A stretch of 32,000 nt of DNA, taken from the NCBI GenBank assembly GCA_038736825.1, contig JAVYME010000004.1, positions 13,237 to 45,236 on the forward strand, in the 5' to 3' direction. Position 1 is the first letter of the stretch. Every line of letters begins with the position of its first letter. The stretch is from Candidatus Iainarchaeum sp. Lineage in GTDB: Archaea > Iainarchaeota > Iainarchaeia > Iainarchaeales > DTGL01. The position numbers and the translations under genes were made by a program. The notes under the pieces are model-generated. The model searched no databases and was not told the origin of the DNA. It saw only the letters and a list, made by a program, of their open reading frames with translations. Shown here in pieces: positions 725-32,000 of the stretch.

Positions 725-987
725 AGCAATCCGCAAAAGTGGTTGTATTGAGTGTTCTCGCCCTCTTCCTGTTTTTTACTGCAATCGCAATGAGGTCTTT
801 TGGGGCTCCTAAAAAAACTGCAATGGATGACTATATGATATTGAATGGTCAAAGGGAGACTGCTGCAAACAATATTGTGGCCGCAATTGTTTTTGATTAC
901 AGGGGTTATGATACTCTTGGCGAGGCAACAATTCTTTTCACTGCGGTCAGCGGTGTTTTTTTGCTGTTCAGGGCGGTGAAAAAATGA
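721..987 (+). CDS. mbhE: small membrane subunit (MbhE equivalent)
   Basis: 88 aa. The motif NIVAAIVFDYRGYDTLGEATILF is MnhB-like. ATGA overlaps on both sides. Confidence 0.65.
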   Translation: MKQSAKVVVLSVLALFLFFTAIAMRSFGAPKKTAMDDYMILNGQRETAANNIVAAIVFDYRGYDTLGEATILFTAVSGVFLLFRAVKK

Positions 988-1463
988 ACGGTCTTTCCAC
1001 TATTGTTAGAACGGTTGCTTTAATTTTGTTTGTTCCCGTGCTTGTTTTAGGGTTTTATGTAATAGCGCATGGGCATCTCACGCCCGGCGGTGGCTTTCAG
1101 GGCGGCACAATTATTGCAACATCGCTGGCGCTTGTTTTGGTTGCTTTTGGGGGAGAGCATTTCAAAAAGGCTGTTTCAAAGGAAACACTGAAAAACCTTG
1201 AAAGCATTGGGCTCACGGTTTTCATTGGTGCTGCTTTGTTGGGGCTCGGGGCTACGTTTTTTGCAAACTTTTTGGCAAACTCTGGGCTTTTGTTTGGGAA
1301 AAGCATTGGGTTTGGAGTGAATCCAGGCTATATTAACACTTCTGGCACTATTGCTGTAATGAATTTTGCTGTTGGCACTGAAGTTGCTGTTGGTTTATCG
1401 CTTGTTTTAATGCTCATGTTTTTTTCCAGTGACAGTGGAATGGAGGGGGGTGAAAAGAAATGA
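984..1463 (+). CDS. mbhF: MnhB-domain membrane subunit (MbhF equivalent)
   Basis: 159 aa. The motif HGHLTPGGGFQGG is the hallmark of the MnhB domain. ATGA overlaps on both sides. Confidence 0.75.
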   Translation: MNGLSTIVRTVALILFVPVLVLGFYVIAHGHLTPGGGFQGGTIIATSLALVLVAFGGEHFKKAVSKETLKNLESIGLTVFIGAALLGLGATFFANFLANSGLLFGKSIGFGVNPGYINTSGTIAVMNFAVGTEVAVGLSLVLMLMFFSSDSGMEGGEKK

Positions 1464-1828
1464 TTTTTGGAAACCTTCCCTTTATTGTTTCTCTTTTAAT
1501 GATTGTTGTGGGTCTTTCAGCCTTGTTGTTTAAAAAGAATCTCATAAAAATGGCCATAGGGCTTTCAATAATGGGTTCTGGCATTAATGTTTTCCTTGTT
1601 GCCTTGTGTTATCGTGACAACAGCATTGCCCCCATATTCACTAATGCGCCTTTAAGCGATGCTTCCAAGGCGGCTGCTGAAATGGCTTTGCCTGTCCCGC
1701 AAGCCTTAACTCTTACAAGCATTGTGATTAGCCTTGCAGTTACCGCTCTAATGCTTTCTCTCGCGGTTCTTTCTTACAGGCATTCTGGGACTCTTGATTC
1801 AGAGAAATCAAGGAGGCTGAAGGGTTGA
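1460..1828 (+). CDS. mbhG: MrpC/NuoK-like membrane subunit (MbhG equivalent)
   Basis: 122 aa with 3 TM segments. Position and size match MbhG. Confidence 0.7.
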   Translation: MIFGNLPFIVSLLMIVVGLSALLFKKNLIKMAIGLSIMGSGINVFLVALCYRDNSIAPIFTNAPLSDASKAAAEMALPVPQALTLTSIVISLAVTALMLSLAVLSYRHSGTLDSEKSRRLKG

Positions 1829-3396
1829 TGGATTTTATTGCGTTTGTTTTGAATCATGCGCCTGCGCTTTCAGTGGCTGTGCCATTGTTGAGTGCCTTTC
1901 TAATTCCTCTTTTTAAAAAGGAGTGGTTGAAGGCATCCATGGCTTTCACTTTATTATCTTTGCTTTTCACTGAAATCCTTGTGCTTTCCGTGTTCTTTAG
2001 CGTTCTTTCTGGGGGTACAAGGGTTTACACGATGGGTGCTGACATTCCAGGGCGGACTCTGCCTTCAGGCATGTCTGTGCCTGTAAGGATTATCCTGCAA
2101 ATAGATGCTCCTTCAGCATTAATGGGCTTGATTGGTGCAACTATTGCGTTGATTGCTGCGTTTTATGCCTTGCAGGGCGTGAAGGACAAGGCTGAGGGCA
2201 AGTTTTATTGCCTTATGCTTTTAATGCTCTCTGGTTTTATTGGCTTTGTTTTCACTGGGGATTTCTTTAACTTGTTTGTTTTCTTTGAGATTCTTTCCAT
2301 TTCTTCTGTTGGCTTGATTGCATTCTGGTTGCACAAGCAAGAGGCAATCGAGGCTGGCTTCAAATATCTTTCAATTAGCGCGGTTGCATCTCTTTTTGTT
2401 TTGCTGGCAATTGCTTTAATGTATGCACAGCACGGTGTTCTCAACATAGCCGCAATATCTCTTGAAACTGCAATCTCGGGTTTTGCAATAATTGATGTGA
2501 TTGCTCTTGGCTTGCTGGTTGCAGGCTTTTTAATGAAGTGCGGCGCGGTTCCAATGCATTACTGGGTTCCAGATGCTTACGGTGAAGCCCCAGAGGCAAT
2601 AACTGCAATTCTTGCAGTTGCAACCCAAGCAAGCCTTTATGCACTTTTAAGGGTTTGCTTTACAATGTTTGGATCCTTTGAACTGATTGGAATAATTGCT
2701 TGGGCAATGATTTTGTTCGGCGTGCTTTCGCTTTTTGTTGGTTCTACAATGTGCTTGCTTCAAAAAGACTTGAAAAGGCTTATTGCATATGGTGGAATTT
2801 CTCAAACCGGTTTTATTCTTGTTGCAATGGGCGCTGGCCTTGCAGCAATAGGCAACCCGGTTTTTTCAGATTTTGGCTTTAAGGCAATGCAGGGCGGAAT
2901 CTTTCACATGATAAACCATGCTTTTTATGAAGCTCTTTTGTTCCTTTCAGCAGGCGCAGTAATCTATGCTGCTGGCACCAAGGATTTGGATGAATTGGGC
3001 GGTCTTGCAAGAAAAATGCCTTTCACTGCAATTCTTTTCCTTGTAGGCGCAATTGCAATGGCTGGCTTGCCTCCATCGAACGGTTTTGCTTCAAAAATCC
3101 TGATTTATGAATCAATTTATTATTTCAACCCTTTTTTGGCTGTGATAGCGCTTGTTTCAAGCGTGATTGTGACTGTTCCGCTTGTTAAGGCTTTTTGCGC
3201 AGTTTTTCTCGGACCAGAGGTTAAAACGCTTTCAGGTGCAAGGGAGGCGCCAAAGGCAATGCTGTTCGCTATGGCGGTTCTTGCATTGATTGTTATATTG
3301 CTCGGATTTTTTCCAAGCATTGTAATAGACTTTGTTGCCAAGCCTGCAGCAAAAGCCTTGCTGGACTGGGGTTCTTACTGGGGGGCTGTAGTGTGA
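1825..3396 (+). CDS. mbhH: MrpD/NuoL-M-N-type antiporter-like subunit (MbhH equivalent)
   Basis: 523 aa, polytopic. The motifs PMHYWVPDAYGEAP and GGIFHMINHAFYEALLFLSAG are typical of proton-conducting Mrp/complex I antiporter subunits. The start is TTG 1825 or ATG 1828, preceded by AGGAGG at 1811-1816. Confidence 0.9.
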   Translation: MMDFIAFVLNHAPALSVAVPLLSAFLIPLFKKEWLKASMAFTLLSLLFTEILVLSVFFSVLSGGTRVYTMGADIPGRTLPSGMSVPVRIILQIDAPSALMGLIGATIALIAAFYALQGVKDKAEGKFYCLMLLMLSGFIGFVFTGDFFNLFVFFEILSISSVGLIAFWLHKQEAIEAGFKYLSISAVASLFVLLAIALMYAQHGVLNIAAISLETAISGFAIIDVIALGLLVAGFLMKCGAVPMHYWVPDAYGEAPEAITAILAVATQASLYALLRVCFTMFGSFELIGIIAWAMILFGVLSLFVGSTMCLLQKDLKRLIAYGGISQTGFILVAMGAGLAAIGNPVFSDFGFKAMQGGIFHMINHAFYEALLFLSAGAVIYAAGTKDLDELGGLARKMPFTAILFLVGAIAMAGLPPSNGFASKILIYESIYYFNPFLAVIALVSSVIVTVPLVKAFCAVFLGPEVKTLSGAREAPKAMLFAMAVLALIVILLGFFPSIVIDFVAKPAAKALLDWGSYWGAVV

Positions 3397-3749
3397 TGAA
3401 CCAGGAAATTTTTGGCGGCACAATGCCTGTTGAATGGAGCCCGCTTGTTTTTATAGTGTCAATTGTTCTTGTCTCACTGGTAGTGGTTGTTGTCAGGTTT
3501 TTTGGAAAAAAAGACTTTGTTGACGGAAAGTTTAGGGCTGATGCATTTCTTTCAGGCAACAAACCGGAAGAAAAACATGAAGTGAAGGCAAGCAATTTCT
3601 TTTGGGGCTTTTTTGAGGCATTAAAGGGATACTATGAAAAAATGCTTGCAATTCACACTGGCTTGCTCAACGATTACATTTTTTGGTTTGTTTTCTGTGT
3701 TTCACTCATATTGATAGCGCTTTACATGGGGGTGGCCTTGTGGGGATAG
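3393..3749 (+). CDS. mbhI: small membrane subunit (MbhI equivalent)
   Basis: 118 aa with 2 TM segments. The start (GTG 3393 or ATG 3396) overlaps the mbhH stop. Size and order match MbhI. Confidence 0.6.
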   Translation: MMNQEIFGGTMPVEWSPLVFIVSIVLVSLVVVVVRFFGKKDFVDGKFRADAFLSGNKPEEKHEVKASNFFWGFFEALKGYYEKMLAIHTGLLNDYIFWFVFCVSLILIALYMGVALWG

Positions 3750-4168
3750 ATTCCTTGAAAAGGTCGCTTTGGGTTTTTCATGTCAACAGTGGTTCCTGCA
3801 ATGGTTGTGATATAGAGATAATTGCAGCTCTCACTCCAAGATATGATGCTGAAAGGTTTGGCATAAAGCTTGTGGGAACCCCAAGGCATGCAGATGTATT
3901 GCTTGTCACAGGCCCTGTCACCAAGCAAATGAAGGAAGAAGTGTTGCGGGTTTACGCTCAAACCCCTCAACCGAAAGTGGTAATGGTTGTGGGCAATTGT
4001 GGAAGCACTGGCGGTGTTTTCTATGAATCCTACAACATTGACGGTCCAGTGAACAAATTGCTGCCAGTTGATGTTTATGTAACCGGCTGCCCTCCAAGGC
4101 CTGAGGCAATCATAGAGGGTGTTGTAAAGGCTTGGAAAAAACTAGAGTCTTTGGAGGCAAAAAAATGA
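3740..4168 (+). CDS. mbhJ: [NiFe]-hydrogenase small subunit, NuoB-like (MbhJ equivalent)
   Basis: The conserved core is WVFHVNSGSCNGCDIEIIAALTPRYDAERFG. The motifs GNCGSTGG and GCPPRPE supply the Cys ligands of the proximal [4Fe-4S] cluster. I prefer GTG 3740 as the start (10-nt overlap with mbhI) over the track's TTG 3683 (67-nt overlap). Confidence 0.85.
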   Translation: MGIDSLKRSLWVFHVNSGSCNGCDIEIIAALTPRYDAERFGIKLVGTPRHADVLLVTGPVTKQMKEEVLRVYAQTPQPKVVMVVGNCGSTGGVFYESYNIDGPVNKLLPVDVYVTGCPPRPEAIIEGVVKAWKKLESLEAKK

Positions 4169-4674
4169 ATCCCGAACAGGTTTTGGAATCATTCAAAAAA
4201 GAATTTCCTGGAATTGAGATAAGGTTGGTTGAACAAGGCTCTGGCAAGCATAAAAAAGCCCAGGTTTGGGCTTTAGTCCAGCCAAAGGATTTCAAGAGAG
4301 CGGTGAAGCACTTGTTTGAATTGCAGGAATTTCCACATTTTTCTGTTTCTTCTGGAAGCGATATTGGAAATGAAATTGAAATAATAAACCATTTTGTGCT
4401 CAATTATGGAGAAAAAGAACCACAAATTCCATTCAATCTTAAAGTGAGGCTGCCAAAGGAAAACCCTGAAATGGAAACAATAACTGATCTTTTTCCAAGC
4501 GCAATCATTTCAGAACAGGAAAAAATGGAAATGCTGGGAATAAAAATTTCCGGAATTCCAAAGAAAAGGGTTTTCACTGATGACAGCATGCCTTCAGGCG
4601 TGTTCCCCTGGAGAAAGGATGGAAAAGGCGCTGAAAAAATAGCAAGGAATGTCCATGAAGGTGGCAAGAAATGA
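4165..4674 (+). CDS. mbhK: NuoC-like subunit (MbhK equivalent)
   Basis: About 169 aa, soluble. ATG 4165 follows GGAGG and overlaps the mbhJ stop (ATGA). Size and order match MbhK. Confidence 0.75.
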   Translation: MNPEQVLESFKKEFPGIEIRLVEQGSGKHKKAQVWALVQPKDFKRAVKHLFELQEFPHFSVSSGSDIGNEIEIINHFVLNYGEKEPQIPFNLKVRLPKENPEMETITDLFPSAIISEQEKMEMLGIKISGIPKKRVFTDDSMPSGVFPWRKDGKGAEKIARNVHEGGKK

Positions 4675-5894
4675 ACAAACAGTTTGAATTGTGCGTTGGA
4701 CCAATACATCCAGCCCTAAAAGAACCAATAAAACTGGATTTTCAAGTTGAAGGCGAGCGCGTTAAAGGGGTTTCTTTCAGTTTAGGGCAAGTGCACCGTG
4801 CAATAGAGTGGGCTGCAACAAAAAGAAACCCGATACAGGTTCTTTACATGGCGGAAAGAATTTGCGGGATTTGCAATATGTGCCATCCGATGGCTTTCAG
4901 CATGGCAATTGAAAGCGCTGCAGGCATTGAAGTGCCAGAGAGAGCTGAATTCATTCGCACAATAAACGCTGAACTTGAAAGAATCCACTCGCACATTTTG
5001 TGGGCTGGAGTTGCAGCGCACGAGCTGGGCTTTGACTCCCTAATGCATTATACTTGGCGCGTCAGAGAAAAAGTCTTAGACATAATAGAATACTTGAATG
5101 GAAACAGAATCACAAAAGGGGTTCTCATGATTGGCGGCGTGAGAAGGGACATTCCAGAAAAAGACTTTGCAAAAGTCAGGGAAGCACTAAACTATTACAA
5201 GGAATTGTACGCAAAACTTGAAAGCATTCTGTTAAAGGACCGCTCAATAATGGCAAGAACAAGGGAAATCGGCATTCTCACAAAAAAGGACGCTCTTGAA
5301 TTGTGCGCTGTGGGCCCAACAGCAAGAGCCTCAGGAGTAAAAAAAGACATTAGAGTGGACTGGCCTTATGCAGCCTATCCCGAGCTTGAAATTGAACCCA
5401 TAACCCCTGAAAGCGCTGGATTCAAGGCAACCGGTGACACTTATGACAGGATTGTGGTGAGATTGCTTGAAATAAAACAATCAATTGAATTGATAGAGCA
5501 ATGCTTGGACAAAATGAAGCCAGGACCGATTCTTGCAGAACCTGTTCTCCAAAAACTGTTAGTGCAATTAAAGACAGTTCAAGGCGAGGGCGTTGCATTC
5601 CAGGAAGCCCCGAGGGGAGAACTAATACACTACATTAAAATGACAGGACAGGAAGCACCTTATGCTTGGAAAGTCAGAGCGCCCACTTATGCAAACCTGC
5701 CTCCCTTAGTGCCAATGCTTTCTGAATGCGAAATAGCCGACATTCCAATAATTGTGGCATCAATAGATCCCTGCATGTCGTGCACAAACCGCGCCATAAT
5801 AACTGACAAAAACAATTCAATGCTTTCAATGGAAGAACTCAGAGAGTTAAGCATTAAAAAAACCCTGAAAATGCAAAAGGAGGCATTGAAATGA
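4671..5894 (+). CDS. mbhL: group 4 [NiFe]-hydrogenase large (catalytic) subunit, NuoD-like (MbhL equivalent)
   Basis: 407 aa. The N-terminal NiFe motif is RICGICNMCH (nt 4863-4886). The C-terminal motif is DPCMSCTNR (nt 5766-5792), followed by a 33-aa extension that could be removed by the adjacent HycI-type protease. Confidence 0.92.
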   Translation: MNKQFELCVGPIHPALKEPIKLDFQVEGERVKGVSFSLGQVHRAIEWAATKRNPIQVLYMAERICGICNMCHPMAFSMAIESAAGIEVPERAEFIRTINAELERIHSHILWAGVAAHELGFDSLMHYTWRVREKVLDIIEYLNGNRITKGVLMIGGVRRDIPEKDFAKVREALNYYKELYAKLESILLKDRSIMARTREIGILTKKDALELCAVGPTARASGVKKDIRVDWPYAAYPELEIEPITPESAGFKATGDTYDRIVVRLLEIKQSIELIEQCLDKMKPGPILAEPVLQKLLVQLKTVQGEGVAFQEAPRGELIHYIKMTGQEAPYAWKVRAPTYANLPPLVPMLSECEIADIPIIVASIDPCMSCTNRAIITDKNNSMLSMEELRELSIKKTLKMQKEALK

Positions 5895-6901
5895 ATGCTT
5901 TGCCATTATTGCTCGCACAGTTTTTGCTTATACCAGTGCTTGCCATAACAGGCATTTTTCTAGGATTGCTTTTTAGGGGAATTGACAGAAAGCTTGGGGC
6001 AAAAATGCAGGCACGCGTTGGCCCGCCAATAATACAGCCCTTTTTGGACTTGAAAAAGCTTTTAATAAAGGAAAACATTGTGCCAAAGCACGCCATAAGC
6101 TGGATTTTCAATTCAATGCCGGTGATAGCACTTGTTTCAGCGCTTTTGCTTTTACTTTACATTCCCTTGTTTGGCTTTGCACCACTTCTCAAAGGCTATG
6201 GAGACCTAATCCTTGTAATGTACCTGTTAATGGTTCCAGCCCTTGCACTCGCCATAGGCGGTTTTTCCTCGGGTTCAACCTATGCCTCTGTTGGAGCGCA
6301 AAGAGAGCTTGTTTTAATGATGAGTTACGAGTTTGCGCTTGCCATAGTGATTGTCACAATTGCATTCATTTCTTCCATTGCCAACCCGCTTTCAAATGCA
6401 TTTTCTCTTGAAACAGTCTCTGAAACACCAATATGGGAGCTTGTAGGGCCAGTTGGCTCAATTGGTGTTTTCCTATTGCTTTTAGCCCTAATGCTTGTAA
6501 TGCCAGTAGAGCTTGGAAGAATCCCTGGAGACATTGCAGAAGCCAAAACCGAAATAGCGGACGGCGTGCTCGTGGAATACAGCGGCCGCAATCTAGCACT
6601 TTTCAACCTGGCACAGGATGTGAGAACAATTGCTTTTGCAGCACTAGTGGTGGCGCTTTTCTTTCCTTACAATTTTTCACCCAGCATTGCAATTCTTGGT
6701 TTTCCAATAGAAGTGATTGCCAATGCTGCCTTTTTCCTTGTAAAGCTTTTCATTGTGGTTTTTGCTGGCTCAATTTTTGTGCATGTTGCAGTGGCAAGGT
6801 TTAAGGTTGACCAAGCAGCAAAAGCCTATTGGGGGCCAGTGCTCACTGTAGCACTTGCTGGAATGGCAATTGCAATTTATGGAACAACAATGGTGGTTTG
6901 A
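5891..6901 (+). CDS. mbhM: NuoH/HycD-like membrane subunit (MbhM equivalent)
   Basis: 336 aa, polytopic. The motifs RVGPPIIQPFLDLKKL and ELVLMMSYEFA, and a GRIPGDIAEAKTEIADG-type loop, are typical of NuoH/HycD. Confidence 0.88.
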   Translation: MNALPLLLAQFLLIPVLAITGIFLGLLFRGIDRKLGAKMQARVGPPIIQPFLDLKKLLIKENIVPKHAISWIFNSMPVIALVSALLLLLYIPLFGFAPLLKGYGDLILVMYLLMVPALALAIGGFSSGSTYASVGAQRELVLMMSYEFALAIVIVTIAFISSIANPLSNAFSLETVSETPIWELVGPVGSIGVFLLLLALMLVMPVELGRIPGDIAEAKTEIADGVLVEYSGRNLALFNLAQDVRTIAFAALVVALFFPYNFSPSIAILGFPIEVIANAAFFLVKLFIVVFAGSIFVHVAVARFKVDQAAKAYWGPVLTVALAGMAIAIYGTTMVV

Positions 6902-6902
6902 A

Positions 6903-7397
6903 ATGGGAATGGCATTTGAACTTTTAAAGCAAATGTTCAAAAAAAGCGCTACAAACAAGTTTCCGGTAAAGTATGCTCCAAAATCCACAACAAAGCTCTT
7001 GGAAAAAGTTGAAAAGGGAGAAATGAAAATTAACCCGCCAATAGCAACACCCCCCAATTTTAGGGGAAGGCTTTCCTATCAAAGAGAAAAATGCATTTTG
7101 TGCAGGCAATGCATTAGAGTGTGCCCTGCAGCTGCACTTGAATTCGACCAGCCATCAAATTCAATCAAGCATTATGCCGCAAGATGCACTTTTTGCGCTC
7201 AATGCGTTGACATCTGTCCCACAAAATGCCTTGCAATGACAGACGAATTCTTGCTTTCAGCTTACGATACAAGCTTGGGCTTTGCTTTGCCAAAAAAAGA
7301 GCCATTGAAAACAGAACAAACAGAGGAAAAAGAAGAAAAGCCAGAGCAAAAAAAAGCAAAACCAAAAGCCAAAAAAAATGCAAAAAAGAAAAAATGA
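6903..7397 (+). CDS. mbhN: 2x[4Fe-4S] ferredoxin-like subunit, NuoI-like (MbhN equivalent), with a Lys-rich C-terminal tail
   Basis: Two cluster motifs are present: CILCRQCIRVCP and CTFCAQCVDICP. ATG 6903 lies 1 nt after the mbhM stop. The last roughly 34 aa (KKEPLKTEQTEEKEEKPEQKKAKPKAKKNAKKKK) are low complexity. Confidence 0.85.
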   Translation: MGMAFELLKQMFKKSATNKFPVKYAPKSTTKLLEKVEKGEMKINPPIATPPNFRGRLSYQREKCILCRQCIRVCPAAALEFDQPSNSIKHYAARCTFCAQCVDICPTKCLAMTDEFLLSAYDTSLGFALPKKEPLKTEQTEEKEEKPEQKKAKPKAKKNAKKKK

Positions 7398-7398
7398 C

Positions 7399-7869
7399 TC
7401 ACAACAGTTCTATTTCTTTCAGTCTGCCCTCTTTCAACAAGCAAATAAGCCTTCTTGCAGCATCTGTTGCTTGCGGGCTAAGCTTGTTTAAATGCCAACC
7501 ATTATTGGGCTGAATTCCGACAATAACAATCTCTTCAACATAAGGCTCTATTTGCGAAACAGTCTGTGAAACCGGAAGCGAATGCGTTGAATAAAACAAA
7601 GAATTCGCTTTAGCCTTGTCTATGCGCCGGATTTCGCCTGGAGAAAGCCCCATTTCCGCAGCATCCACTAAAACCAGCAAAGAAGGCCTTTCCCTTTTAA
7701 TCAAGCCAATAAAGTTTTCAAGAGCAGCTCCAGCATTAACTGAAAGCCAGTCCCGTTCACTGAAATTGTCAGCAATCACGCAGCCGACTGCATCATCGCC
7801 GTTCAATTCTTGACCCATGCCCACAAGCATGCACATTTTTCTGGTTTCATTATAAGACTCAAATTTCAT
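7399..7869 (-). CDS. hycI: hydrogenase maturation endopeptidase (HycI/HybD family)
   Basis: 156 aa. The motifs LVGMGQELNGDDAVG (GxGNxxxxDDGxG-like) and LVLVDAAEMG are typical of this family. It sits next to hypA and the hydrogenase operon. Confidence 0.8.
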   Translation of the reverse strand: MKFESYNETRKMCMLVGMGQELNGDDAVGCVIADNFSERDWLSVNAGAALENFIGLIKRERPSLLVLVDAAEMGLSPGEIRRIDKAKANSLFYSTHSLPVSQTVSQIEPYVEEIVIVGIQPNNGWHLNKLSPQATDAARRLICLLKEGRLKEIELL

Positions 7870-8222
7870 TCAAAAACCACTCTTTTCACTTTTCGCCCTG
7901 TTCCACCGGAAAGCATTGCTTTTTCACCGCAAACAGGGCAATCCAAAAAAAGAGCTTCAGAAAACTCGGCTTCCTTTCTCCATTCGCTTTCATGGCCGTT
8001 CAAGCACTTTATTTTCGGTTTTTCAATTTCAATTTTTATCCTGGCTTTTTCGGCAATAGTGCCCTCTGAAACCACTTTAAAAGCCTCTGTTAGTTCCTCT
8101 GCAGTAACATCCGCTATTTCGCCCAGTTCAATCACAATCTCTTTTATTTTTCCAGCTCTGGCTTTTTTGGCTTCTGCCAGCGCGTCACCCAAAAGCTTTC
8201 TTGCAATCCCAAACTCGTGCAT
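7866..8222 (-). CDS. hypA: hydrogenase nickel-insertion protein HypA
   Basis: 118 aa with the N-terminal MHE nickel-binding motif and a C-terminal CPVCG knuckle. The first knuckle reads CLNGH rather than CxxC. A 4-nt overlap links it to hycI. Confidence 0.85.
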   Translation of the reverse strand: MHEFGIARKLLGDALAEAKKARAGKIKEIVIELGEIADVTAEELTEAFKVVSEGTIAEKARIKIEIEKPKIKCLNGHESEWRKEAEFSEALFLDCPVCGEKAMLSGGTGRKVKRVVFE

Positions 8223-18340: not shown

Positions 18341-18640
18341 GCAATCACTTTTTGTTTTTCAAGAGAATAATATTGTTTTCACTGCTTAATATAGTTTTGC
18401 CCAAAAGCATTTAGGCTTCAAGCAACTTTAAGAGAGCCTCTAAAGAAAAAAACAAAGCAATAAATGCAAGCAGGCTTTATTTGGAAAAAACAACTGTTAT
18501 TTAAAAAGCAAGCGTTTTTTTGGGAACCAAAAACAACAACAATTTTATATAGTGAAAGGCTAAGTATTATACTGCTGTTTTGTTTTAAGGTGAAGTTTTT
18601 GGCAAAGGAAAAGGTTGTGGAAAGCCGCCTGGAAAAAGAA

Positions 18641-21568
18641 ATGGGCGACGAGTTTGATGAAATATTTGGCCTTGAAGAGGACAAAAAAAAGGCTCGCGAG
18701 CGCATAAAAAAGCTTGTGGAAGAGGAAAAGGAAAAGGCAGCCAAAAAGGAATCCCTGCCAGAGGAAAACAAAAAAAAGCCTGAAAAAGAGCCAGTGATTG
18801 AAAAAAGCGCTGAAACCACCAAACAACCTGAAAAAACAAAAAAAGCAAAAGAAGAAAAAAAGATTGAGCCAAAAAAAGCCAAGCAAACAGAGGTTGAAGC
18901 AAAAGAAAGCGAAAAAGATTCAAAAGAAAAGCCAAAAACTGAAAAAAAGCAAGAGCCAAAAAAGCCTTCTTCAAAAAAGGCAAAAGAAGTGCTGGAAGAA
19001 GATGATCTCTCAGACGGCGGCTCTCAAGATTTTTTTGAAGAAAGCAAGGGCGAGCCATCCAAAAGCGCTTTTGCAGAAATCGTTGAACCTGCAGCTGACA
19101 CAATCTATCCCCCGCTTTCCTTTTTAAACGATGGCAAAAAATCCGTTTTGATTGGCAGAAAAAAATCTGTTTTTGAAAAATACGGTTTTGAGGGCGCCCT
19201 CCACATAGGCAGAATCGCCGAACAAGAGTTTTCAGGCAACGAAGTGTTCCTTGACAGCTTGAACCCGCATGTTGTTTTTGTTTGCGGTGCAAGAGGCTCT
19301 GGAAAAAGCTATGCTTTGGGCATAATGGCTGAAGAACTGGCTTTAAAAAACAAGAACGTCGGCATAATAGTCATAGACCCAGTAGGGGTTTTTTGGAGCA
19401 TGCGATTTCCCAACCGCGAGGAAAAAGAAATAGAATCCTTAAAAGAATGGGGGTTGAAGCCCAAAGGCTTGGAAAACCTTATGGTTTTCATTCCAAAAGG
19501 AATGGAAAAGGAAACCCCAAGGGAAACATATGATGCAACCTTTTCCATCAGGCCCTCACTGCTTACTGCAACCGATTGGTGCCTTACATTTGGCATAGAC
19601 AAGTTTTCGCCAACCGGGCTTTTGCTGGAGCAAGCAATGGAAAAAGTAAAAACCGGTTATACTACAATTGAAGGGGAAAAAATCAAGGCAAAAGGAAAAG
19701 ATTACAGCATAGAGGACATTGTTGCCTGCCTTGAAAAAGACACAGACCTAAATTCAGGGGACACTGGCTATAAAAAGGACTCCATTAGAGCGCTTGTTTC
19801 AAGGTTTGCTGGAGCAAAAGCATGGGGCATTTTTGATTCAACTGGAACCCCGCTAACAGAATTAAGCCGTGAAAACCAGTTAACAGTAATTGACACCTCC
19901 TTTCTCGACGACAACGTCACTGCACTAGTGATTGGAATACTTGCCAGAAGGATTCTTGCAGCAAGAAAGGTTTCAACAAGAAAAGAGGCAGCAAAAAGAA
20001 TGGAAGTGGAAAAGGAAAGCAAACTCCTTGAATTCGAGATTCCGCCCACCTGGCTTTTCATTGACGAAGCCCACTTGCTGATTCCAAGTGGAAACATGAA
20101 AACCCCTGCAACAGAAGGCTTGCTGGAATACGTAAAACAGGGAAGAAGGCCTGGTTGCTCGCTCGTGTTTGCAACACAACAGCCTTCAGCAATAGACTCG
20201 CGCGTTTTAAGCCAGCTCGACATTATAATGACCCACAAGCTTGTCTTCAATGATGACATAAAGGCTGTTTACAAGAGAACACCGGCAATAATTCCCCACA
20301 AATACAAAGCAGGCGCTTTCATAAAAACCCTGCCGGTTGGCACTGCACTTACCGGTGACAGGCGAGAGGAAACCAGTAGAGCCTTCCTTTTAAAATTCAG
20401 GCCCAGAATGAGCCAGCACGAGGGAAGAGAAGCAGAAACCATTGAAGTGAAAAAAACATTGGACAACGAGGCAGTGCAAAGACTTATTGCCGGAATGTAC
20501 CTTAACAGGCTGAAAAGAGACAATTACTTTAAAGTGAAAGAACTGGAAAGAATACTGGATTCAATGAACAAAAAATATAGTGCCAGTGTTGCACTAGAAG
20601 ACATAATAAAAGAATTGAAAAAAAATGGCGCGCTTTTCAAGGAAAAAGAAGGCATTATTGAACTGCCAGTGGAAAAAGAAAAACCGGAAAGCCCAGAGGA
20701 AAGAGAAGAAGAAATCGAAGAAGCCGAAATGGAAAAAGAACCAGAACCAAAAGAAATAGAACAATTAAAAGAAAAAGAAATGCTAAAGGAAGCCGAAAGC
20801 CTTGCAAAAAAAGCAAAAACAGAAGAAGAACCAGCGCCAGTAAGCCTTCTTGCATTCAGCCAAAAAATCAGTGAAGAAAAAGCAAGAGACATCATAAAAA
20901 AGAAAAAGTTCGGGTTCTTGGGATTGCTTGGAAAAAGCCACAGAATAAGCGATTTGCGCTTAAAACACATTACGGTTTTCAAGGTAAAATTCAATTATTT
21001 CAATGAAAAAAACGCTTTCCGGCCGGGCACCCTGTTTGTGAACTCGCAAAGCGGTGAATTCTTGCACTACAAAGACAACAAGTTTGTTGAATCAACAGGT
21101 TTGAAAAGGCTTTACGGGCTCAGTGCAGAAGAAATAAGCGTTTTAAACGTTATTTCAACTCCAAAAACAGCAAAAGAGATAAGCAGGCAGGCTCACATGG
21201 AAGAACCAAAAACCCTGCAAACCCTAAAAAAACTGGTTGAAAAAGGACTGGCAAAACCGAAAAAAGTAAAAGAAAAGCAAGCCTTTGCACTAGCAACAGA
21301 GTTTGAGCTTCCGTTTAGCCCATTGCACCCCTTGCATGACTCCATAAAAGAAATTCCATTAGTGGAAAGCGAAGTGCTCTCAAAAGAAGAAGAACATTAC
21401 TCAAAAAAGGATGTCTCTGAATTATTGAAAAAAATCTGGAAAAAAATTGTAGTGACAAGCATTGAAGAAATATACTGGCCTGCCTATGAAGGCATAATAG
21501 AAGACAGGTATGGCAAAAAAAGCCGCGTTCTAGTTGATGCAGTAACCGGAAAAATTTTGGCTTTTTGA
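18641..21568 (+). CDS. HerA/DUF87-type (FtsK-HerA superfamily) P-loop ATPase with a K/E-rich N-terminal region and a roughly 350-aa C-terminal extension
   Basis: Walker A VCGARGSGKS is at nt 19286-19309. Walker B WLFIDEAH is at about 20051-20074. RRPGCSLVFATQQPSAIDSRVLSQLDIIMTHKL is a HerA-like sensor/arginine-finger region. The start is uncertain: ATG 18641, GTG 18590, or the track's ATG 18464. A TATA-like TTTATATA at 18544-18551 argues against 18464. Confidence 0.8.
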   Translation: MGDEFDEIFGLEEDKKKARERIKKLVEEEKEKAAKKESLPEENKKKPEKEPVIEKSAETTKQPEKTKKAKEEKKIEPKKAKQTEVEAKESEKDSKEKPKTEKKQEPKKPSSKKAKEVLEEDDLSDGGSQDFFEESKGEPSKSAFAEIVEPAADTIYPPLSFLNDGKKSVLIGRKKSVFEKYGFEGALHIGRIAEQEFSGNEVFLDSLNPHVVFVCGARGSGKSYALGIMAEELALKNKNVGIIVIDPVGVFWSMRFPNREEKEIESLKEWGLKPKGLENLMVFIPKGMEKETPRETYDATFSIRPSLLTATDWCLTFGIDKFSPTGLLLEQAMEKVKTGYTTIEGEKIKAKGKDYSIEDIVACLEKDTDLNSGDTGYKKDSIRALVSRFAGAKAWGIFDSTGTPLTELSRENQLTVIDTSFLDDNVTALVIGILARRILAARKVSTRKEAAKRMEVEKESKLLEFEIPPTWLFIDEAHLLIPSGNMKTPATEGLLEYVKQGRRPGCSLVFATQQPSAIDSRVLSQLDIIMTHKLVFNDDIKAVYKRTPAIIPHKYKAGAFIKTLPVGTALTGDRREETSRAFLLKFRPRMSQHEGREAETIEVKKTLDNEAVQRLIAGMYLNRLKRDNYFKVKELERILDSMNKKYSASVALEDIIKELKKNGALFKEKEGIIELPVEKEKPESPEEREEEIEEAEMEKEPEPKEIEQLKEKEMLKEAESLAKKAKTEEEPAPVSLLAFSQKISEEKARDIIKKKKFGFLGLLGKSHRISDLRLKHITVFKVKFNYFNEKNAFRPGTLFVNSQSGEFLHYKDNKFVESTGLKRLYGLSAEEISVLNVISTPKTAKEISRQAHMEEPKTLQTLKKLVEKGLAKPKKVKEKQAFALATEFELPFSPLHPLHDSIKEIPLVESEVLSKEEEHYSKKDVSELLKKIWKKIVVTSIEEIYWPAYEGIIEDRYGKKSRVLVDAVTGKILAF

Positions 21569-27469: not shown

Positions 27470-30445
27470 ATGGCAGAACTAAAAGAATTAAGGCTTAAAA
27501 ACTTTAAGTCCTTCAAAAAAGCCACGATTCCGTTCAGGAAAGGCTTTACTGCAATAATAGGCCCCAATGGTTCTGGAAAAAGCAATATTTTGGACGCAAT
27601 CCTTTTCGTGCTCGGTTCAACTTCAATGAAATCTTTGCGTGCTGGAAGGATTTCAGGACTGATAAACAATAGTGCTGGAGAATCCTATGGAAAAGTGGAA
27701 ATAGTTGTAGCAGACAAGGAAAGAGAGTGGGCAATCAGTAGGACAATTGACAAAAGCGGCAAAAGCACTTGCCGCATAAACGATGAAAAAACAGGCTTAA
27801 ATGAAGCAGTTGCCTTGCTCAACGAGCTTGGCTTGAAAAGCGATGGCAACAACATTGTAACACAGGGTGACATAACAAAAATTATTGAAATGAGTCCAGA
27901 GGAAAGACGCGAAATAATAGATGATCTTGCAGGAATAAGCGAATTTGACTTAAAAAAGGAAGAGGCTGAAAAAAACCTTGCCAAAGCCGAGGAAAAAGTC
28001 AAAAACACCACGCTTGTCTTGAACGAACGCCTTTCAAGAATTGAAACCCTTGAAAGCGAAAAACGCGCTGCCGAAGAATATTTGGCGCTGGTTGAAAAAA
28101 AGAATAGATCCAAGGCAACAATCCTGAAACTGGAATCAGAAGAAGCGCAAAAAAGTCTTGCAATAGCAAGAGAAAAACTTGAAAAACTGAAAACAGAAGC
28201 GGACTCTTTGGACGAAAAAGCCAGGCAGACAATGGAAACAATAGAACGCACTGAAAAGGAAGTGCAAGAAAAGGAAAGAGAGCTTTTTGAAAAAAAAGAA
28301 AAAGCCCTGAGAGAAATAGTTTCAAAAATAGAATCACTCAAGGGAGAAAAAAACCTGGCTCTTGAAAAAACAGCAAACGAAAAAAGAAGGCTGGCTGAAA
28401 GCGCTGAAAGAGAGGAAGCAATATCGAAAAGGCTGGAAACGCTAAGGGAAGAATCCGCAATTGAAAAAGCAAGGCTTGCAAAAATATCTGAAGAAATTCC
28501 AGAACTTGAAAACAGACTGCAAACAATAATAAAAGAGCTTGAAAGCACAAGCATGGAATCAAAAGAAAAAGAAAGCGAAACAAAGGCAATGGAACAAAAA
28601 CTGGCTGAAACAGAAGAAGAAATAGAAAGCCTGCAAAAACAAGCAACACTCCTTTTGTCTGAAAAAAGCGCTATTGAAAGGCAAAACAGCCTTGCAGAAA
28701 AAGAGCTTAGTGAAATAAGCGAAAAAATAAAAGGGCTTAAAGTTCAAAGAGAAAAAGCACTTCAAGTCAAGGAAAGGCTTGGAGTAATGGAATCCAAAAA
28801 AATAAAACAATCACTGGAAGTTGCAGAAAAAAACTGCGAGAAAGCGCTTTCACAAGAAAAAGAACTAGAGGCAAAAATTGGCGAAATACAGTCAGCCATT
28901 AAAGAACTGAAAAAAGAAATAGCAAAATGCCCTGTATGTGATTCCGACCTTTCCGCCCAAAAGAAAAAACAATTGCTCCAAAAAAAAGAAAACGAGGAAA
29001 AAAAAGCAGTTTTTGAATTAAAGCAAATTTCCTCAACCTTAAACGAAGCAAGAAAAAGAAAAACAGAACTCGAAAAAGAACTGGAAATAATGCAAGAGCT
29101 TGAAAGAGAACTGGCAGTATTGAACGAAAAAACCTCAGCGCTTGCAGAACTCGAAGCAAGGCAAAAAACACTCTTTGCCTCAAAACCAGAAACCACAGAA
29201 ATTTCAGCCAAAATCAAAGAAGTTGAAAAAAAACTTGAAACCCTGAAAGCAAAAAAAAACAGTCTTGCCTTGCAACTGTCATCAGTTAAAACAGGCAAAA
29301 AAACAATAGAATTGAACAGCAAAAAAAGCGAGCTGGAAAACAGGCTAAAAATGCTGGAAACAGAGGCAAATAACATAAAAGAAAAAATCCTTTCAAGAAT
29401 AGAGACTGAAACTGTAGCCTTGATAAAAGAAACAGAAAAAATACACTCTAGTGCCCTCGAAACACAAAAAAGAATAGAAAGCCTTGAAAAAAAATCCCAA
29501 GAACTTGAAAAAACACTTGAAAAACTTGAAACGGAAAGCGAAGAACACTCCAAAAAAATGCAAGCAGAACTGCAAAAAAAAGAAGAACTGGACAAAAAAC
29601 TGGCATCACTCAGGCAAAAAAAAGAATCACTTGAAGCCGAATCAAGAAAAAAAGCCAAAGAAATGGAAGAACTCAGAATAGAAGCAGGAAAAGCAGAAGT
29701 AAGGCTTTCCGACATAGAGGAAGAATTCAAGCAATTCAAGGAATTCAAGCCAATTGAAGGCACTTCAATAAAAGAATTGAAAAAAGACTTGGCTGAAGCA
29801 GAAAAAAAACTAGAAAAAATCGGCCCAGTTAACCTGAGAGCCGCAGAATCCCTTGGAAACGAAAAAACAGAACTCTTGGAAGTAAGAGAAAAACTCAAAA
29901 AACTCGAAGAGGAAAGAAACGCCGTACTCGACATGATTCAAAAAATAGACATAAAAAGAAAGGAAGCCTTCATGCAATGCTTTAATGCAGTAAAAGAAAA
30001 CTTTTCAAAAATGTTTTACAATTTTTTTGAAGGAGTCGGCCAGCTTGGCCTAACGGATCCAGAAAACCCGGCTGACTCTGGGCTAATCATAGAGGCAAAG
30101 CACAAGGGAGAAAACCTGCAAAACATTGACAGCATGAGTGGTGGAGAAAAAAGCCTTGCCGCCCTAGCATTCATTTTTGCAATACAGCAATACGATCCAG
30201 CCCCATTTTATTTCTTTGACGAATCAGATGCTGCTTTGGATGAAGCCAACTCCATTCGGTTGACGAGAATGATAAGCGAAATAAGCAAAAACTCTCAGTT
30301 CATAGCAATAACCCACAACAATTCCATGATTAAAAGCGCAGACCAAATAATTGGAGTTACGCTTGACAAAGACAAATCCAGTGTCATAGGCTTGGACTTA
30401 AAGGAAAAAATCTGGGAAAAAAACAGCGCAAAAAACAACAACTGA
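27470..30445 (+). CDS. smc: SMC-family ATPase (chromosome segregation protein-like) with no recognisable hinge and a central CxxC zinc-hook-like motif
   Basis: The N-terminal head contains FTAIIGPNGSGKSNILDAILFVLG and IVTQGDITKIIEMSPEERREIIDDLAGISEF. The C-terminal head contains MSGGEKSLAALAFIFAIQ, PFYFFDESDAALD and QFIAITHN. About 640 aa of K/E/L-rich coiled coil lie between them. CPVC occupies aa 487-490 of 991 (nt 28928-28939). Confidence 0.88.
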   Translation: MAELKELRLKNFKSFKKATIPFRKGFTAIIGPNGSGKSNILDAILFVLGSTSMKSLRAGRISGLINNSAGESYGKVEIVVADKEREWAISRTIDKSGKSTCRINDEKTGLNEAVALLNELGLKSDGNNIVTQGDITKIIEMSPEERREIIDDLAGISEFDLKKEEAEKNLAKAEEKVKNTTLVLNERLSRIETLESEKRAAEEYLALVEKKNRSKATILKLESEEAQKSLAIAREKLEKLKTEADSLDEKARQTMETIERTEKEVQEKERELFEKKEKALREIVSKIESLKGEKNLALEKTANEKRRLAESAEREEAISKRLETLREESAIEKARLAKISEEIPELENRLQTIIKELESTSMESKEKESETKAMEQKLAETEEEIESLQKQATLLLSEKSAIERQNSLAEKELSEISEKIKGLKVQREKALQVKERLGVMESKKIKQSLEVAEKNCEKALSQEKELEAKIGEIQSAIKELKKEIAKCPVCDSDLSAQKKKQLLQKKENEEKKAVFELKQISSTLNEARKRKTELEKELEIMQELERELAVLNEKTSALAELEARQKTLFASKPETTEISAKIKEVEKKLETLKAKKNSLALQLSSVKTGKKTIELNSKKSELENRLKMLETEANNIKEKILSRIETETVALIKETEKIHSSALETQKRIESLEKKSQELEKTLEKLETESEEHSKKMQAELQKKEELDKKLASLRQKKESLEAESRKKAKEMEELRIEAGKAEVRLSDIEEEFKQFKEFKPIEGTSIKELKKDLAEAEKKLEKIGPVNLRAAESLGNEKTELLEVREKLKKLEEERNAVLDMIQKIDIKRKEAFMQCFNAVKENFSKMFYNFFEGVGQLGLTDPENPADSGLIIEAKHKGENLQNIDSMSGGEKSLAALAFIFAIQQYDPAPFYFFDESDAALDEANSIRLTRMISEISKNSQFIAITHNNSMIKSADQIIGVTLDKDKSSVIGLDLKEKIWEKNSAKNNN

Positions 30446-30925: not shown

Positions 30926-32000
30926 TCAAACTCCTCGCTTTTTGAACGCCCATTTTGCTTTGCTGGTTTTGGCTGTCTTGGGCTTTGCTTTTTCTTTTTC
31001 ACTTGAAGGCTTTTCCTTGGCGCTTTCTGCTTTCAGGCGCGCGATTTTTTTTTCTTCATTTGAAACCTCTGCTTCTTCTTCTGATGCTTTCAATTTTACT
31101 GAGGCAAGCCTGTTTGTGAGCGAGTCAAGGGCTTCCCTGTAATCGGAATCAATTATTTCTCCTTTTTCATATTGTGCTTTAAGCTCTTTCAGCATGAATT
31201 GAATCATTTGGATTTCGCCATGCAATCTGTCTGTTTCAATCAAATGCTTTGACCTTATGCGCTTTTCCTCTTCCAAGGCTGCAAGCTTGTCCTCATGCTC
31301 GGATTTAATTTTTTGGAATTCTTCTTCGCTGAGTTTTTCCCTAAATCTTGCCTTTTCCGCTGACTCTTTCGCCTTTTCAAGGCGTTCTATTCTTTTTGAA
31401 ATGAATCCTTCCTGTTTCTTGTTTTGAGAGAGTTTTATGGCGCCAACAAGGGCAATGCCTGCAATAACCACTAATAGAACCAAAACCAAAATGAAAAAGG
31501 TAACTGTATTGTTTTCGGCAACCTGGATTTTTGGTGTTATTTTTGGCTTGCTCCAGTCTTTTATGGTTTCCACGGAGGCTGATGCAAGTTCTGCCTTTGC
31601 TTGTCTTGTTACAAGCAATAGTTCTTCTGCAAAAAAGGCAAGCCTTAAGCCGGCTTTTGCGTTTTCTGCTGCTTCAGGTGTAGCCTTTTGTTTTTCAAAA
31701 TACTTGGCTGAATCGTAAAAGTATTTTGCGTGGTCAAAGTAAAGTTTTGCCCAAACCATTGTTTGCTCTTCTGATAAAAACTGGGCTTCCAGTTTTGAAA
31801 TCTTTTCACTGAGCAAGCCTATTAGTTCAGGGTAGCCTTTGCCTTGGATTGCTCTCTCTGCTTTTGCCAGAGCAAGAGCAGAGGCTGCATCAAATGCTGC
31901 AGAATCGCTTGAGCCTTCTTTGAGGGCAAGCTTTGCAGCGTTCAGCCTTCTCTCTATGTCTTCAGATTCTTCTGGAAGAATAACTGCAAGCTCGTCTTCT
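30926..32000 (-). CDS. hypothetical membrane protein (extracytoplasmic helical domain - TM - cytoplasmic coiled coil with a K-rich tail); 5' end outside the window
   Basis: The reading frame stays open upstream of the track's TTG 31816 all the way to base 31999 (EDELAVILPEESEDIERRLNAAKLALKEG...), so the gene is truncated by the window edge. The TM helix is FFILVLVLLVVIAGIALVGAI. Confidence 0.55.
   Translation of the reverse strand, partial: EDELAVILPEESEDIERRLNAAKLALKEGSSDSAAFDAASALALAKAERAIQGKGYPELIGLLSEKISKLEAQFLSEEQTMVWAKLYFDHAKYFYDSAKYFEKQKATPEAAENAKAGLRLAFFAEELLLVTRQAKAELASASVETIKDWSKPKITPKIQVAENNTVTFFILVLVLLVVIAGIALVGAIKLSQNKKQEGFISKRIERLEKAKESAEKARFREKLSEEEFQKIKSEHEDKLAALEEEKRIRSKHLIETDRLHGEIQMIQFMLKELKAQYEKGEIIDSDYREALDSLTNRLASVKLKASEEEAEVSNEEKKIARLKAESAKEKPSSEKEKAKPKTAKTSKAKWAFKKRGV

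Follow-up and report, generated by a model that had tools for sequence, protein, structure and literature searches.

A probable chromosomal SMC ATPase of Iainarchaeota with a Rad50-type CPxC hook motif in place of the hinge

Textbooks split the coiled-coil ABC ATPases into SMC proteins, which combine a hinge with a kleisin, and Rad50, which combines a zinc hook with Mre11, and what the hinge does in DNA loading and loop extrusion remains a matter of debate. Reviews give the dichotomy of a hinge for SMC and a hook for Rad50 without exception. In the laboratory, an engineered B. subtilis Smc(Zh), in which the hinge is exchanged for the P. furiosus Rad50 hook, shows near-normal arm alignment and growth together with the same arm-length periodicity (Bürmann 2017, PMC5344682), and the reciprocal chimera of Rad50 with a MukB hinge works in fission yeast (Tatebe 2020, PMC6969161). 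Here, we analyzed a stretch of 32,000 nucleotides (nt) from Candidatus Iainarchaeum sp. (GCA_038736825.1, contig JAVYME010000004.1, positions 13,237 to 45,236 of the forward strand; hereafter, the window), which carries a gene for a protein of 991 amino acids (aa) that we call hook-SMC. We hold with good confidence that this gene encodes the chromosomal SMC (a condensin-type ABC ATPase) of an archaeon of the Iainarchaeota/Diapherotrites (DPANN) and that the hinge has been replaced in this lineage by a CPxC hook of the Rad50 type. Hook-SMC would share SMC heads and arms and a Rad50 hook with the engineered Smc(Zh), but the latter is a laboratory construct, whereas hook-SMC belongs to a natural lineage under selection across a phylum.

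In the searchable full text, whose coverage is incomplete, we came across no natural SMC with a hook but only the engineered chimeras; an earlier description elsewhere is possible. A previous model-generated reading of the window (hereafter, the sequence-only reading) had likewise named no characterized natural example. For the searchable literature this holds, but it has to be qualified by other SMC-like families that bear hooks on heads that are not SMC-type: ASRPs have CPxC hooks (PMC9389158), and many LmuBs do too (PMC10586767). The ASRPs (ClsN/coalescin, Sph1/Sph2; NF045487) resemble hook-SMC in being archaeal coiled-coil ABC ATPases with a hook motif instead of a hinge, but they are only ~600 aa long, with short arms and distinct heads. 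LmuB of the Lamassu system is likewise an SMC-like ATPase that often has a CPxC hook, but it measures ~650 aa, stands in a defense context, and often has a Walker-B E-to-Q exchange.

The identical protein at NCBI (P0001 in our database search) is named 'AAA family ATPase [Candidatus Diapherotrites archaeon]'. Every motif listed in the sequence-only reading was found at its place (Table 1), and among 61 aligned hook proteins, which share 30-75% identity with the query, the invariant head columns comprise N33, G36, K37, Q132, A154, and G155 in the N-terminal half and S890, G891, G892, E893, D917, E918, D920, D924, and H949 in the C-terminal half. Pfam returned an SMC_N match of 3e-57 besides generic AAA_15/21/23/29 matches, and the top NCBIfam model was SMC_prok_A (TIGR02169) with 573.1 bits; the match to this model is split in two, flanking the hinge part of the profile, and its better stretch aligns protein residues 497-977 with profile positions 688-1165. 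Sequence matches in the PDB were led by the Pyrococcus Smc heads 5xei (3e-91), 5xns (3e-84), and 4i99 (4e-76). When the predicted head was searched with Foldseek, the P. furiosus Smc head 4i99_A superposed with a template modeling (TM) score of 0.88 and a root-mean-square deviation of 2.4 Å, with Rad50 complexes ranked below. Judged by these motifs and matches, the heads are SMC-type with all catalytic motifs retained, in agreement with the previous view of both half-heads as SMC-like.

A divergent Rad50/SbcC working with Mre11 in double-strand-break repair would also combine a zinc hook with the lack of a hinge and of an adjacent kleisin. HerA often accompanies archaeal Mre11-Rad50, and hook-SMC has a conserved HerA-like ATPase gene a few kb upstream. 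However, the Rad50 models of NCBIfam reached only 58-142 bits against cutoffs of 700-1087 (the best, 142 bits against 700), and the Rad50 heads in the PDB matched at only 9e-19. The arms align with canonical SMC arms, the clade is sister to the DPANN hinge-type SMCs, no Mre11 or NurA domain was found in any flank examined, and the genes between the HerA-like ATPase and the SMC are variable. By profiles, PDB matches, and Foldseek the heads came out SMC-type, and we regard a Rad50/SbcC identity as very improbable.

The protein could instead belong to another hook-bearing SMC-like family, such as ASRP/ClsN (coalescin), arcadin-4, Lamassu LmuB, or a Wadjet/MADS component, and its PADLOC matches to mad3 (201 bits) and LmuB (80 bits), along with the hooks of ASRPs and LmuBs, speak for such a placement. 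On the other hand, the ASRP model NF045487 gave 112.3 bits (cutoff, 300) against 573 for the SMC model, arcadin-4 (Rkd4) gave 61 bits (cutoff, 860), and these families are ~600-750 aa long with short arms. Canonical hinge SMCs obtain 198-204 bits with mad3, which makes this score generic, and the LmuB model discriminates, since a genuine LmuB scores 289 bits on it. Together with a housekeeping context that is syntenic across the phylum, these scores make membership in such a family highly unlikely. A reading of the locus as a defense system was rejected, its PADLOC matches to mad3 and mad8 being generic. The genuine LmuB is a 617-aa Lamassu protein with NCPICS in its coiled coil, encoded by a partial gene at the edge of one locus (L003, 1-1318, + strand), and represents a separate hook-bearing defense protein in one hook-SMC genome.

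No match to SMC_hinge (PF06470) was found by Pfam in the 991-aa protein, even at E <= 1. In a MAFFT alignment with canonical DPANN and other archaeal SMCs (~1170 aa), both arms align position by position, and the ~180-aa hinge block of the canonical proteins corresponds to ~15 residues, xxxCPxC[D/E]xx[L/I], in the hook proteins. Residues 171-810 consist of 51% K+E+L and include only 9 Gly and 5 Pro. A full-length AlphaFold2 model (61 family sequences as input; mean predicted local distance difference test [pLDDT], 78.8) has a helix at 156-480, a non-helical turn at 481-495, and a second helix at 496-853, with no central globular domain. These results bear out the claim of the sequence-only reading that the protein has no hinge. 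The modeled helices lie on both sides of the turn with paired breaks. The breaks fall at 209-225 (joint-like) and 359-367 (elbow-like) on the ascending strand and at 756-790 and 607-609 on the descending one; since 209-225/756-790 and 359-367/607-609 are equidistant from the apex, they are as expected of an antiparallel arm with joint- and elbow-like discontinuities. In the model, the arm strands are full length, with ~310 residues each, and the matching breaks indicate that they pair antiparallel.

Spacing within the family is regular: the neck motif and the first cysteine are 332-334 residues apart in 86/97 members, and the second cysteine and the GxVN motif are 299 residues apart in 56/97 (range, 289-301). 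A discrete short-arm class (P0036, P0071, P0083, L036, L056, and L069; P numbers denote clusters from the database search and L numbers genomic loci) has strands that are each ~100-110 residues shorter, a step that equals one coiled-coil superhelical period. For SMC arms, length steps of ~100 aa and a functional period of 91 aa have been reported. Measured by these spacings, the arm length of hook-SMCs is tightly conserved and quantized in ~100-aa steps, as for functional SMC arms.

At the apex, the CPVC motif sits at 0.49 of the protein length, near the midpoint as previously described. Between aa 170 and 785, C487, P488, and C490 are the only columns that are invariant in the 61 hook proteins, and a CPxC at 0.48-0.50 of the length occurs in ~70/83 hinge-less homologue clusters and in 0/34 hinge-bearing ones; because of these counts and the invariance of C/P/C, the midpoint motif is not a chance occurrence. 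The conservation indicates that the CPxC motif is under purifying selection. Rad50_zn_hook (PF04423) matches aa 466-516 with 24.2 bits in the full protein, where the gathering cutoff is 24.3, and with 29.1 bits in the isolated apex segment, and 25/28 family apex segments match PF04423 by themselves. A hook match or none in the center, and no hinge match, had been predicted from the sequence. AlphaFold2 modeled the central 124 residues confidently (pLDDT, 91.5; predicted TM score, 0.74) as a helix at 2-59, a 7-residue turn bearing CPVC, and a helix at 67-123, so that the motif, whose conservation and apex position had been proposed as a check, is both invariant in 61 orthologues and at the tip of the modeled hairpin. 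In a Foldseek search with this model, the Rad50 zinc hook 1l8d came first, and the rod-form hook 6zff_A had a TM score of 0.73.

Sequence likeness to Rad50 extends beyond the cysteines. From 28 family members we built a hidden Markov model (HMM) that covers the central 124 residues, and we searched it against 177,635 PDB sequences. The top three matches are all Rad50 hooks, namely those of P. furiosus (1l8d, 5.4e-13, and 6zff, 4e-12) and of human (5gox, 0.03), and no other coiled-coil protein, SMC arm fragments included, matched at E < 0.05. The P. furiosus match spans ~100 residues. The native P. furiosus hook scores 49.3 bits on this apex profile. With CPVC kept and the flanks shuffled, it scores 1.6 +/- 5.6 bits (maximum, 22.1), and the native score is attained in 0/500 shuffles (z = 8.4); masking CPVC leaves 19.2 bits, and shuffling the proximal +/-15 residues alone leaves 16.5. 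These controls show that the resemblance reaches well past the four-residue motif, and the flank of hook-SMC, AIKELKKEIAKCPVCDSDLSAQKKKQLLQK, is similar to the P. furiosus Rad50 flank. Compared with Rad50/SbcC hooks in general (1l8d, 6zff, PF04423), hook-SMC shares a CPxC at the tip of an antiparallel hairpin and a presumed zinc-bridged dimer, but its heads and arms are SMC-type, no Mre11 lies nearby, and the residue after the second cysteine is D or E where Rad50 has G.

These results bear on whether the CPxC turn could have evolved de novo at the apex after hinge loss, with the same function and a different origin. Convergence of this kind has in its favor that the motif is short, that the constraints on a zinc-bridged hairpin could favor similar flanks (hydrophobic at the fourth residue after the second cysteine, then basic residues), that the apex profile gives the human Rad50 hook only 17.7 bits, and that no Iainarchaeota donor Rad50 was identified. 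Nevertheless, it would have to account for a match of 5e-13 to an archaeal Rad50 hook across ~100 residues, for the ~19 bits left after masking, for flank shuffles that never come near the native score, and for the absence of other PDB coiled coils at E < 0.05, and we consider it unlikely, although the strongest competitor. The profile comparisons favor, but do not prove, capture of a Rad50 hook by recombination, that is, a true chimera. The sequence-only reading had proposed an SMC/Rad50 chimera with a hook in place of the hinge; the replacement of the hinge and the Rad50-like flanks support it, its Rad50 origin is supported but not proven against convergence, and we infer zinc-mediated dimerization.

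Our database search returned ~85 hinge-less clusters of 920-1015 aa (P0001-P0085), followed from P0086 on by canonical SMCs with PF06470. In neighbor-joining trees, for which only hinge-type SMCs served as outgroups, the split between hinge and hinge-less proteins was recovered in 50/50 bootstrap replicates with all conserved columns and in 46/50 with the head columns alone, and a further data set, assembled from genomic loci, gave it again. Since the hinge-less proteins form one clade, they point to a single origin. This clade is sister to the DPANN hinge-type SMCs, and hinge-type loci labeled Iainarchaeum are not clearly its sister. We also scanned one genome per GTDB species, which yielded 418 relatives, and the figures that follow come from the best 79 loci. 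About 55 of these 79 have a CxxC in the middle of the protein, which in one case reads CLVC, and the carriers are almost all labeled Candidatus Iainarchaeum, Iainarchaeota, or Diapherotrites, including a complete 1.05-Mb chromosome (CP064981.1) and the single-cell genome of Ca. Iainarchaeum andersonii (archaeon GW2011_AR10). The lowest-ranked of the 79 include loci from Micrarchaeota and Altiarchaeales, which are hinge-type.

This distribution also speaks to a technical explanation, in which a canonical smc lost its hinge through misassembly of, or a deletion in, a metagenome-assembled genome. The window does come from such a genome, but the same architecture recurs in >80 clusters and ~55 species-level genomes from independent studies, the complete chromosome and the single-cell genome among them, with conserved arm lengths and a motif under purifying selection, and we give an artefact practically no credence.

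Several side observations concern the spread and variants of the family. A typical Iainarchaeota hook-SMC lies on two contigs with bacterial bin labels, DAOWAC010000046.1 ('Chloroflexota bacterium', L015) and JAFCBY010000019.1 ('Falkowbacteria bacterium', L043, where it also has the membrane-protein neighbor described below), and both labels are probably binning errors. In some orthologues, an intein interrupts the sequence right behind the Walker-A lysine (…NASGK|C…; P0034, P0060 [~1535 aa], L038, L039, and L042); several of these inteins are of full size and include a homing-endonuclease domain, whereas L042 has a mini-intein. Other DPANN lineages have 'mini' hinge-type SMCs of ~800-846 aa (P0102, P0109, P0111, P0114, P0116-P0120, and L085).

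Several results weigh against hook-SMC being a chromosomal SMC with a Rad50-type hook. The SMC equivalog cutoffs are missed, with 573.1 vs 729.4 bits for SMC_prok_A and 463 vs 567 for SMC_prok_B. The Foldseek E-values of the apex against Rad50 hooks are weak (0.05-0.3); since any helical hairpin scores alike, these values are non-discriminating. Thirteen clusters inside the hook clade are without both cysteines and have kept the remainder of the protein, and since they are nested in the clade, the hook is not indispensable in every member. ScpA, ScpB, Mre11, and NurA were found neither in the window nor within +/-10 kb of any hook-SMC examined, with >60 hook-SMC loci covered for ScpA. Finally, the matches listed in database searches with DPANN ScpA profiles, among them one from Micrarchaeota, and in cluster look-ups come only from Aenigmatarchaeota/Micrarchaeota and similar lineages, with no Iainarchaeota or hook-SMC contig among them.

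The cysteine-less proteins are relevant to the idea that the central CPxC is not a hook for zinc-mediated dimerization. It could be a structural turn, form a redox-sensitive disulfide, or bind a different metal or a partner, with dimerization achieved otherwise, e.g., through nothing but arm-arm packing and head engagement. The 13 nested clusters, which retain heads and arms with neither cysteines nor a hinge, fit this idea. Against it stand a motif invariant in 61 divergent sequences and located at the exact hairpin tip, the specific likeness, flanks included, to a structurally proven zinc hook, and the functionality of an engineered Smc with a Rad50 hook, and we find it improbable. The cysteine-less, hinge-less clusters (P0042, P0057, P0059, P0061, P0063, P0065, P0077, P0079-P0082, P0084, and P0085; loci L049, L050, L052, L066, and L068) are ~919-942 aa long, with a head-to-head span ~70 residues shorter, and are nested in the hook clade at two or three places. 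Their tree positions suggest secondary loss of the hook.

The search for a kleisin near the SMC genes used Pfam scans of the neighbors at E <= 1, a bacterial ScpA probe against all retrieved locus ORFs, and narrow and broad ScpA HMMs. The sequence-only reading had noted no scpA, scpB, or mre11 in the window, and the neighbor scans and ScpA HMMs found none either. The ScpA probe recovered ScpA only beside hinge-type SMCs, at L085 and L080, and a weak ScpA HMM match in L046 proved to be ribosomal protein L1. Among the canonical DPANN SMC loci examined for an adjacent scpA, none was found. At L085, an scpA (2813-3554) of the Aenigmatarchaeota type overlaps the 3' end of smc (372-2874).

The features of the window are collected in Table 1. 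Directly upstream of the SMC gene, and ending 16 nt before its start, lies a gene for a membrane protein. Counting only loci with enough upstream DNA, the same gene is immediately upstream on the same strand at 33/33 hook loci and 6/6 cysteine-less loci but at 0/10 hinge-type loci. It was seen at L001-L004, L007-L070, and L086-L087, at a distance that in most ranges from an overlap to ~25 nt, and the protein is poorly conserved in sequence. Going by gene order alone, it may be a co-transcribed partner of hook-SMC.

Table 1. Features of the window, with positions in the 32,000-nt stretch (nt) or in the 991-aa protein (aa)
Feature	Position	Strand	Details
Hook-SMC gene	27470-30445	+	991-aa SMC ATPase; intact open reading frame, ATG start; putative CPxC zinc hook in place of the hinge
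Head, N-terminal half (aa 1-170)	27470-27979	+	Walker A, Q-loop, neck motif
Ascending coiled-coil arm (aa 171-480)	27980-28909	+	AlphaFold2 secondary structure; aligns with canonical SMC arms as far as the hinge boundary
Apex turn with CPVC (aa 481-495)	28910-28954	+	Invariant C/P/C; tip in AlphaFold2 model; Rad50-hook profile matches
Descending coiled-coil arm (aa 496-810)	28955-29899	+	AlphaFold2 secondary structure; Cys2-GxVN spacing
Head, C-terminal half (aa 811-991)	29900-30442	+	Signature, Walker B/D-loop, H-loop
Walker A GPNGSGKS	aa 31-38, nt 27560-27583	+	Motif position
Q-loop/neck IVTQGD...AGISEF	aa 129-159	+	Q-loop residue Q132; neck AGISEF
CPVC	aa 487-490, nt 28928-28939	+	At 0.49 of protein length
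Signature MSGGEK	aa 889-894, nt 30134-30151	+	Motif position
Walker B/D-loop PFYFFDESDAALD	aa 912-924	+	Motif position
Walker B/D-loop FYFFDESDAALD	nt 30206-30241	+	Motif position
QFIAITHN (H-loop H949)	aa 943-950	+	Motif position
Upstream membrane-protein gene, 285 aa	26596-27453	+	Weak PF10110 (GPDPase_memb) match; ~6 transmembrane segments
Large HerA/DUF87-family ATPase	18464-21568	+	C-terminal winged-helix (TrmB/HTH_27) domain
Group-4 membrane-bound [NiFe] hydrogenase-like cluster	984-8222		Subunits given in the text
296-aa protein without Pfam family	30926-31816	-	One transmembrane segment, long K/E-rich coiled coil; two genes downstream of SMC, convergent

In many genomes, L001-L003 included, a HerA-like ATPase of 860-1200 aa is kept a few kb upstream of hook-SMC; the genes in between vary by locus, and the PADLOC mad8/HerA matches of this ATPase look generic. 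The subunits of the hydrogenase cluster are Mrp-antiporter-like (MnhB, NuoK-like, and NuoL/M-like), small and large hydrogenase, NuoH-like, and ferredoxin, with the HycI protease and HypA encoded on the opposite strand. Other genes in the window encode a tRNA-splicing endonuclease, a class-I aminoacyl-tRNA synthetase, glutamate dehydrogenase, GlmS, GlmM, and a hexapeptide transferase. Distant orthologue loci share the HerA-like gene upstream and have Lon, ribosomal L10/L1/L11, Spt5, SecE, and FtsZ downstream. The setting is an ordinary housekeeping chromosome with conserved synteny, not a defense locus.

Hook-SMC thus has in common with Smc of Smc-ScpAB (TIGR02169; 4i99, 5xei, and 5xns) the head fold, the ATPase motifs, the neck, the joint- and elbow-like breaks, the strands of ~310 residues, and the chromosomal housekeeping context, and homodimeric use is expected of both. 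It differs in that Smc has the hinge PF06470 where hook-SMC has a 15-residue CPxC turn, and in that hook-SMC remains below the equivalog cutoff, is without an adjacent scpA, and has a membrane-protein gene upstream.

In Rad50, a single Zn2+ bridges two protomers through four cysteines (Hopfner 2002, as cited in PMC5344682). By analogy, two hook-SMC protomers would share one Zn2+ through their four cysteines and form a constitutive homodimer joined at the apex, which is plausible because the engineered Smc(Zh) and the reciprocal chimera work. ATP would drive cycles of head engagement and disengagement, as it does for Smc-ScpAB, by which the dimer would trap chromosomal DNA or move along it. As for the origin of the hook segment, the ancestor shared by the whole clade most likely acquired it through recombination with an archaeal Rad50. 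A kleisin whose gene lies at another place in the genome is probably still part of the complex. We also put forward, tentatively and with somewhat more doubt than belief, that most Iainarchaeota have a hook-SMC with a Rad50-captured hook as their only condensin, always co-encoded with a dedicated membrane protein that could be a new partner (e.g., a membrane anchor), alongside or instead of a kleisin.

Most hook-SMCs go by the name 'AAA family ATPase' at NCBI because their scores do not reach the SMC equivalog cutoffs, and gene-content surveys may wrongly score their genomes as SMC-less. Laboratory chimeras had suggested that the dimerization modules are interchangeable, and our findings indicate that evolution has made and kept the same swap, which strong purifying selection has maintained in at least ~55 species, with an arm length that varies by no more than a few residues. 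The family would provide a natural system in which to study what the hinge contributes, how arm geometry relates to the dimerization module, and which partner proteins are involved. If hook-SMC is indeed the sole condensin and carries a hook, it would be natural proof that SMC function does not require the hinge.

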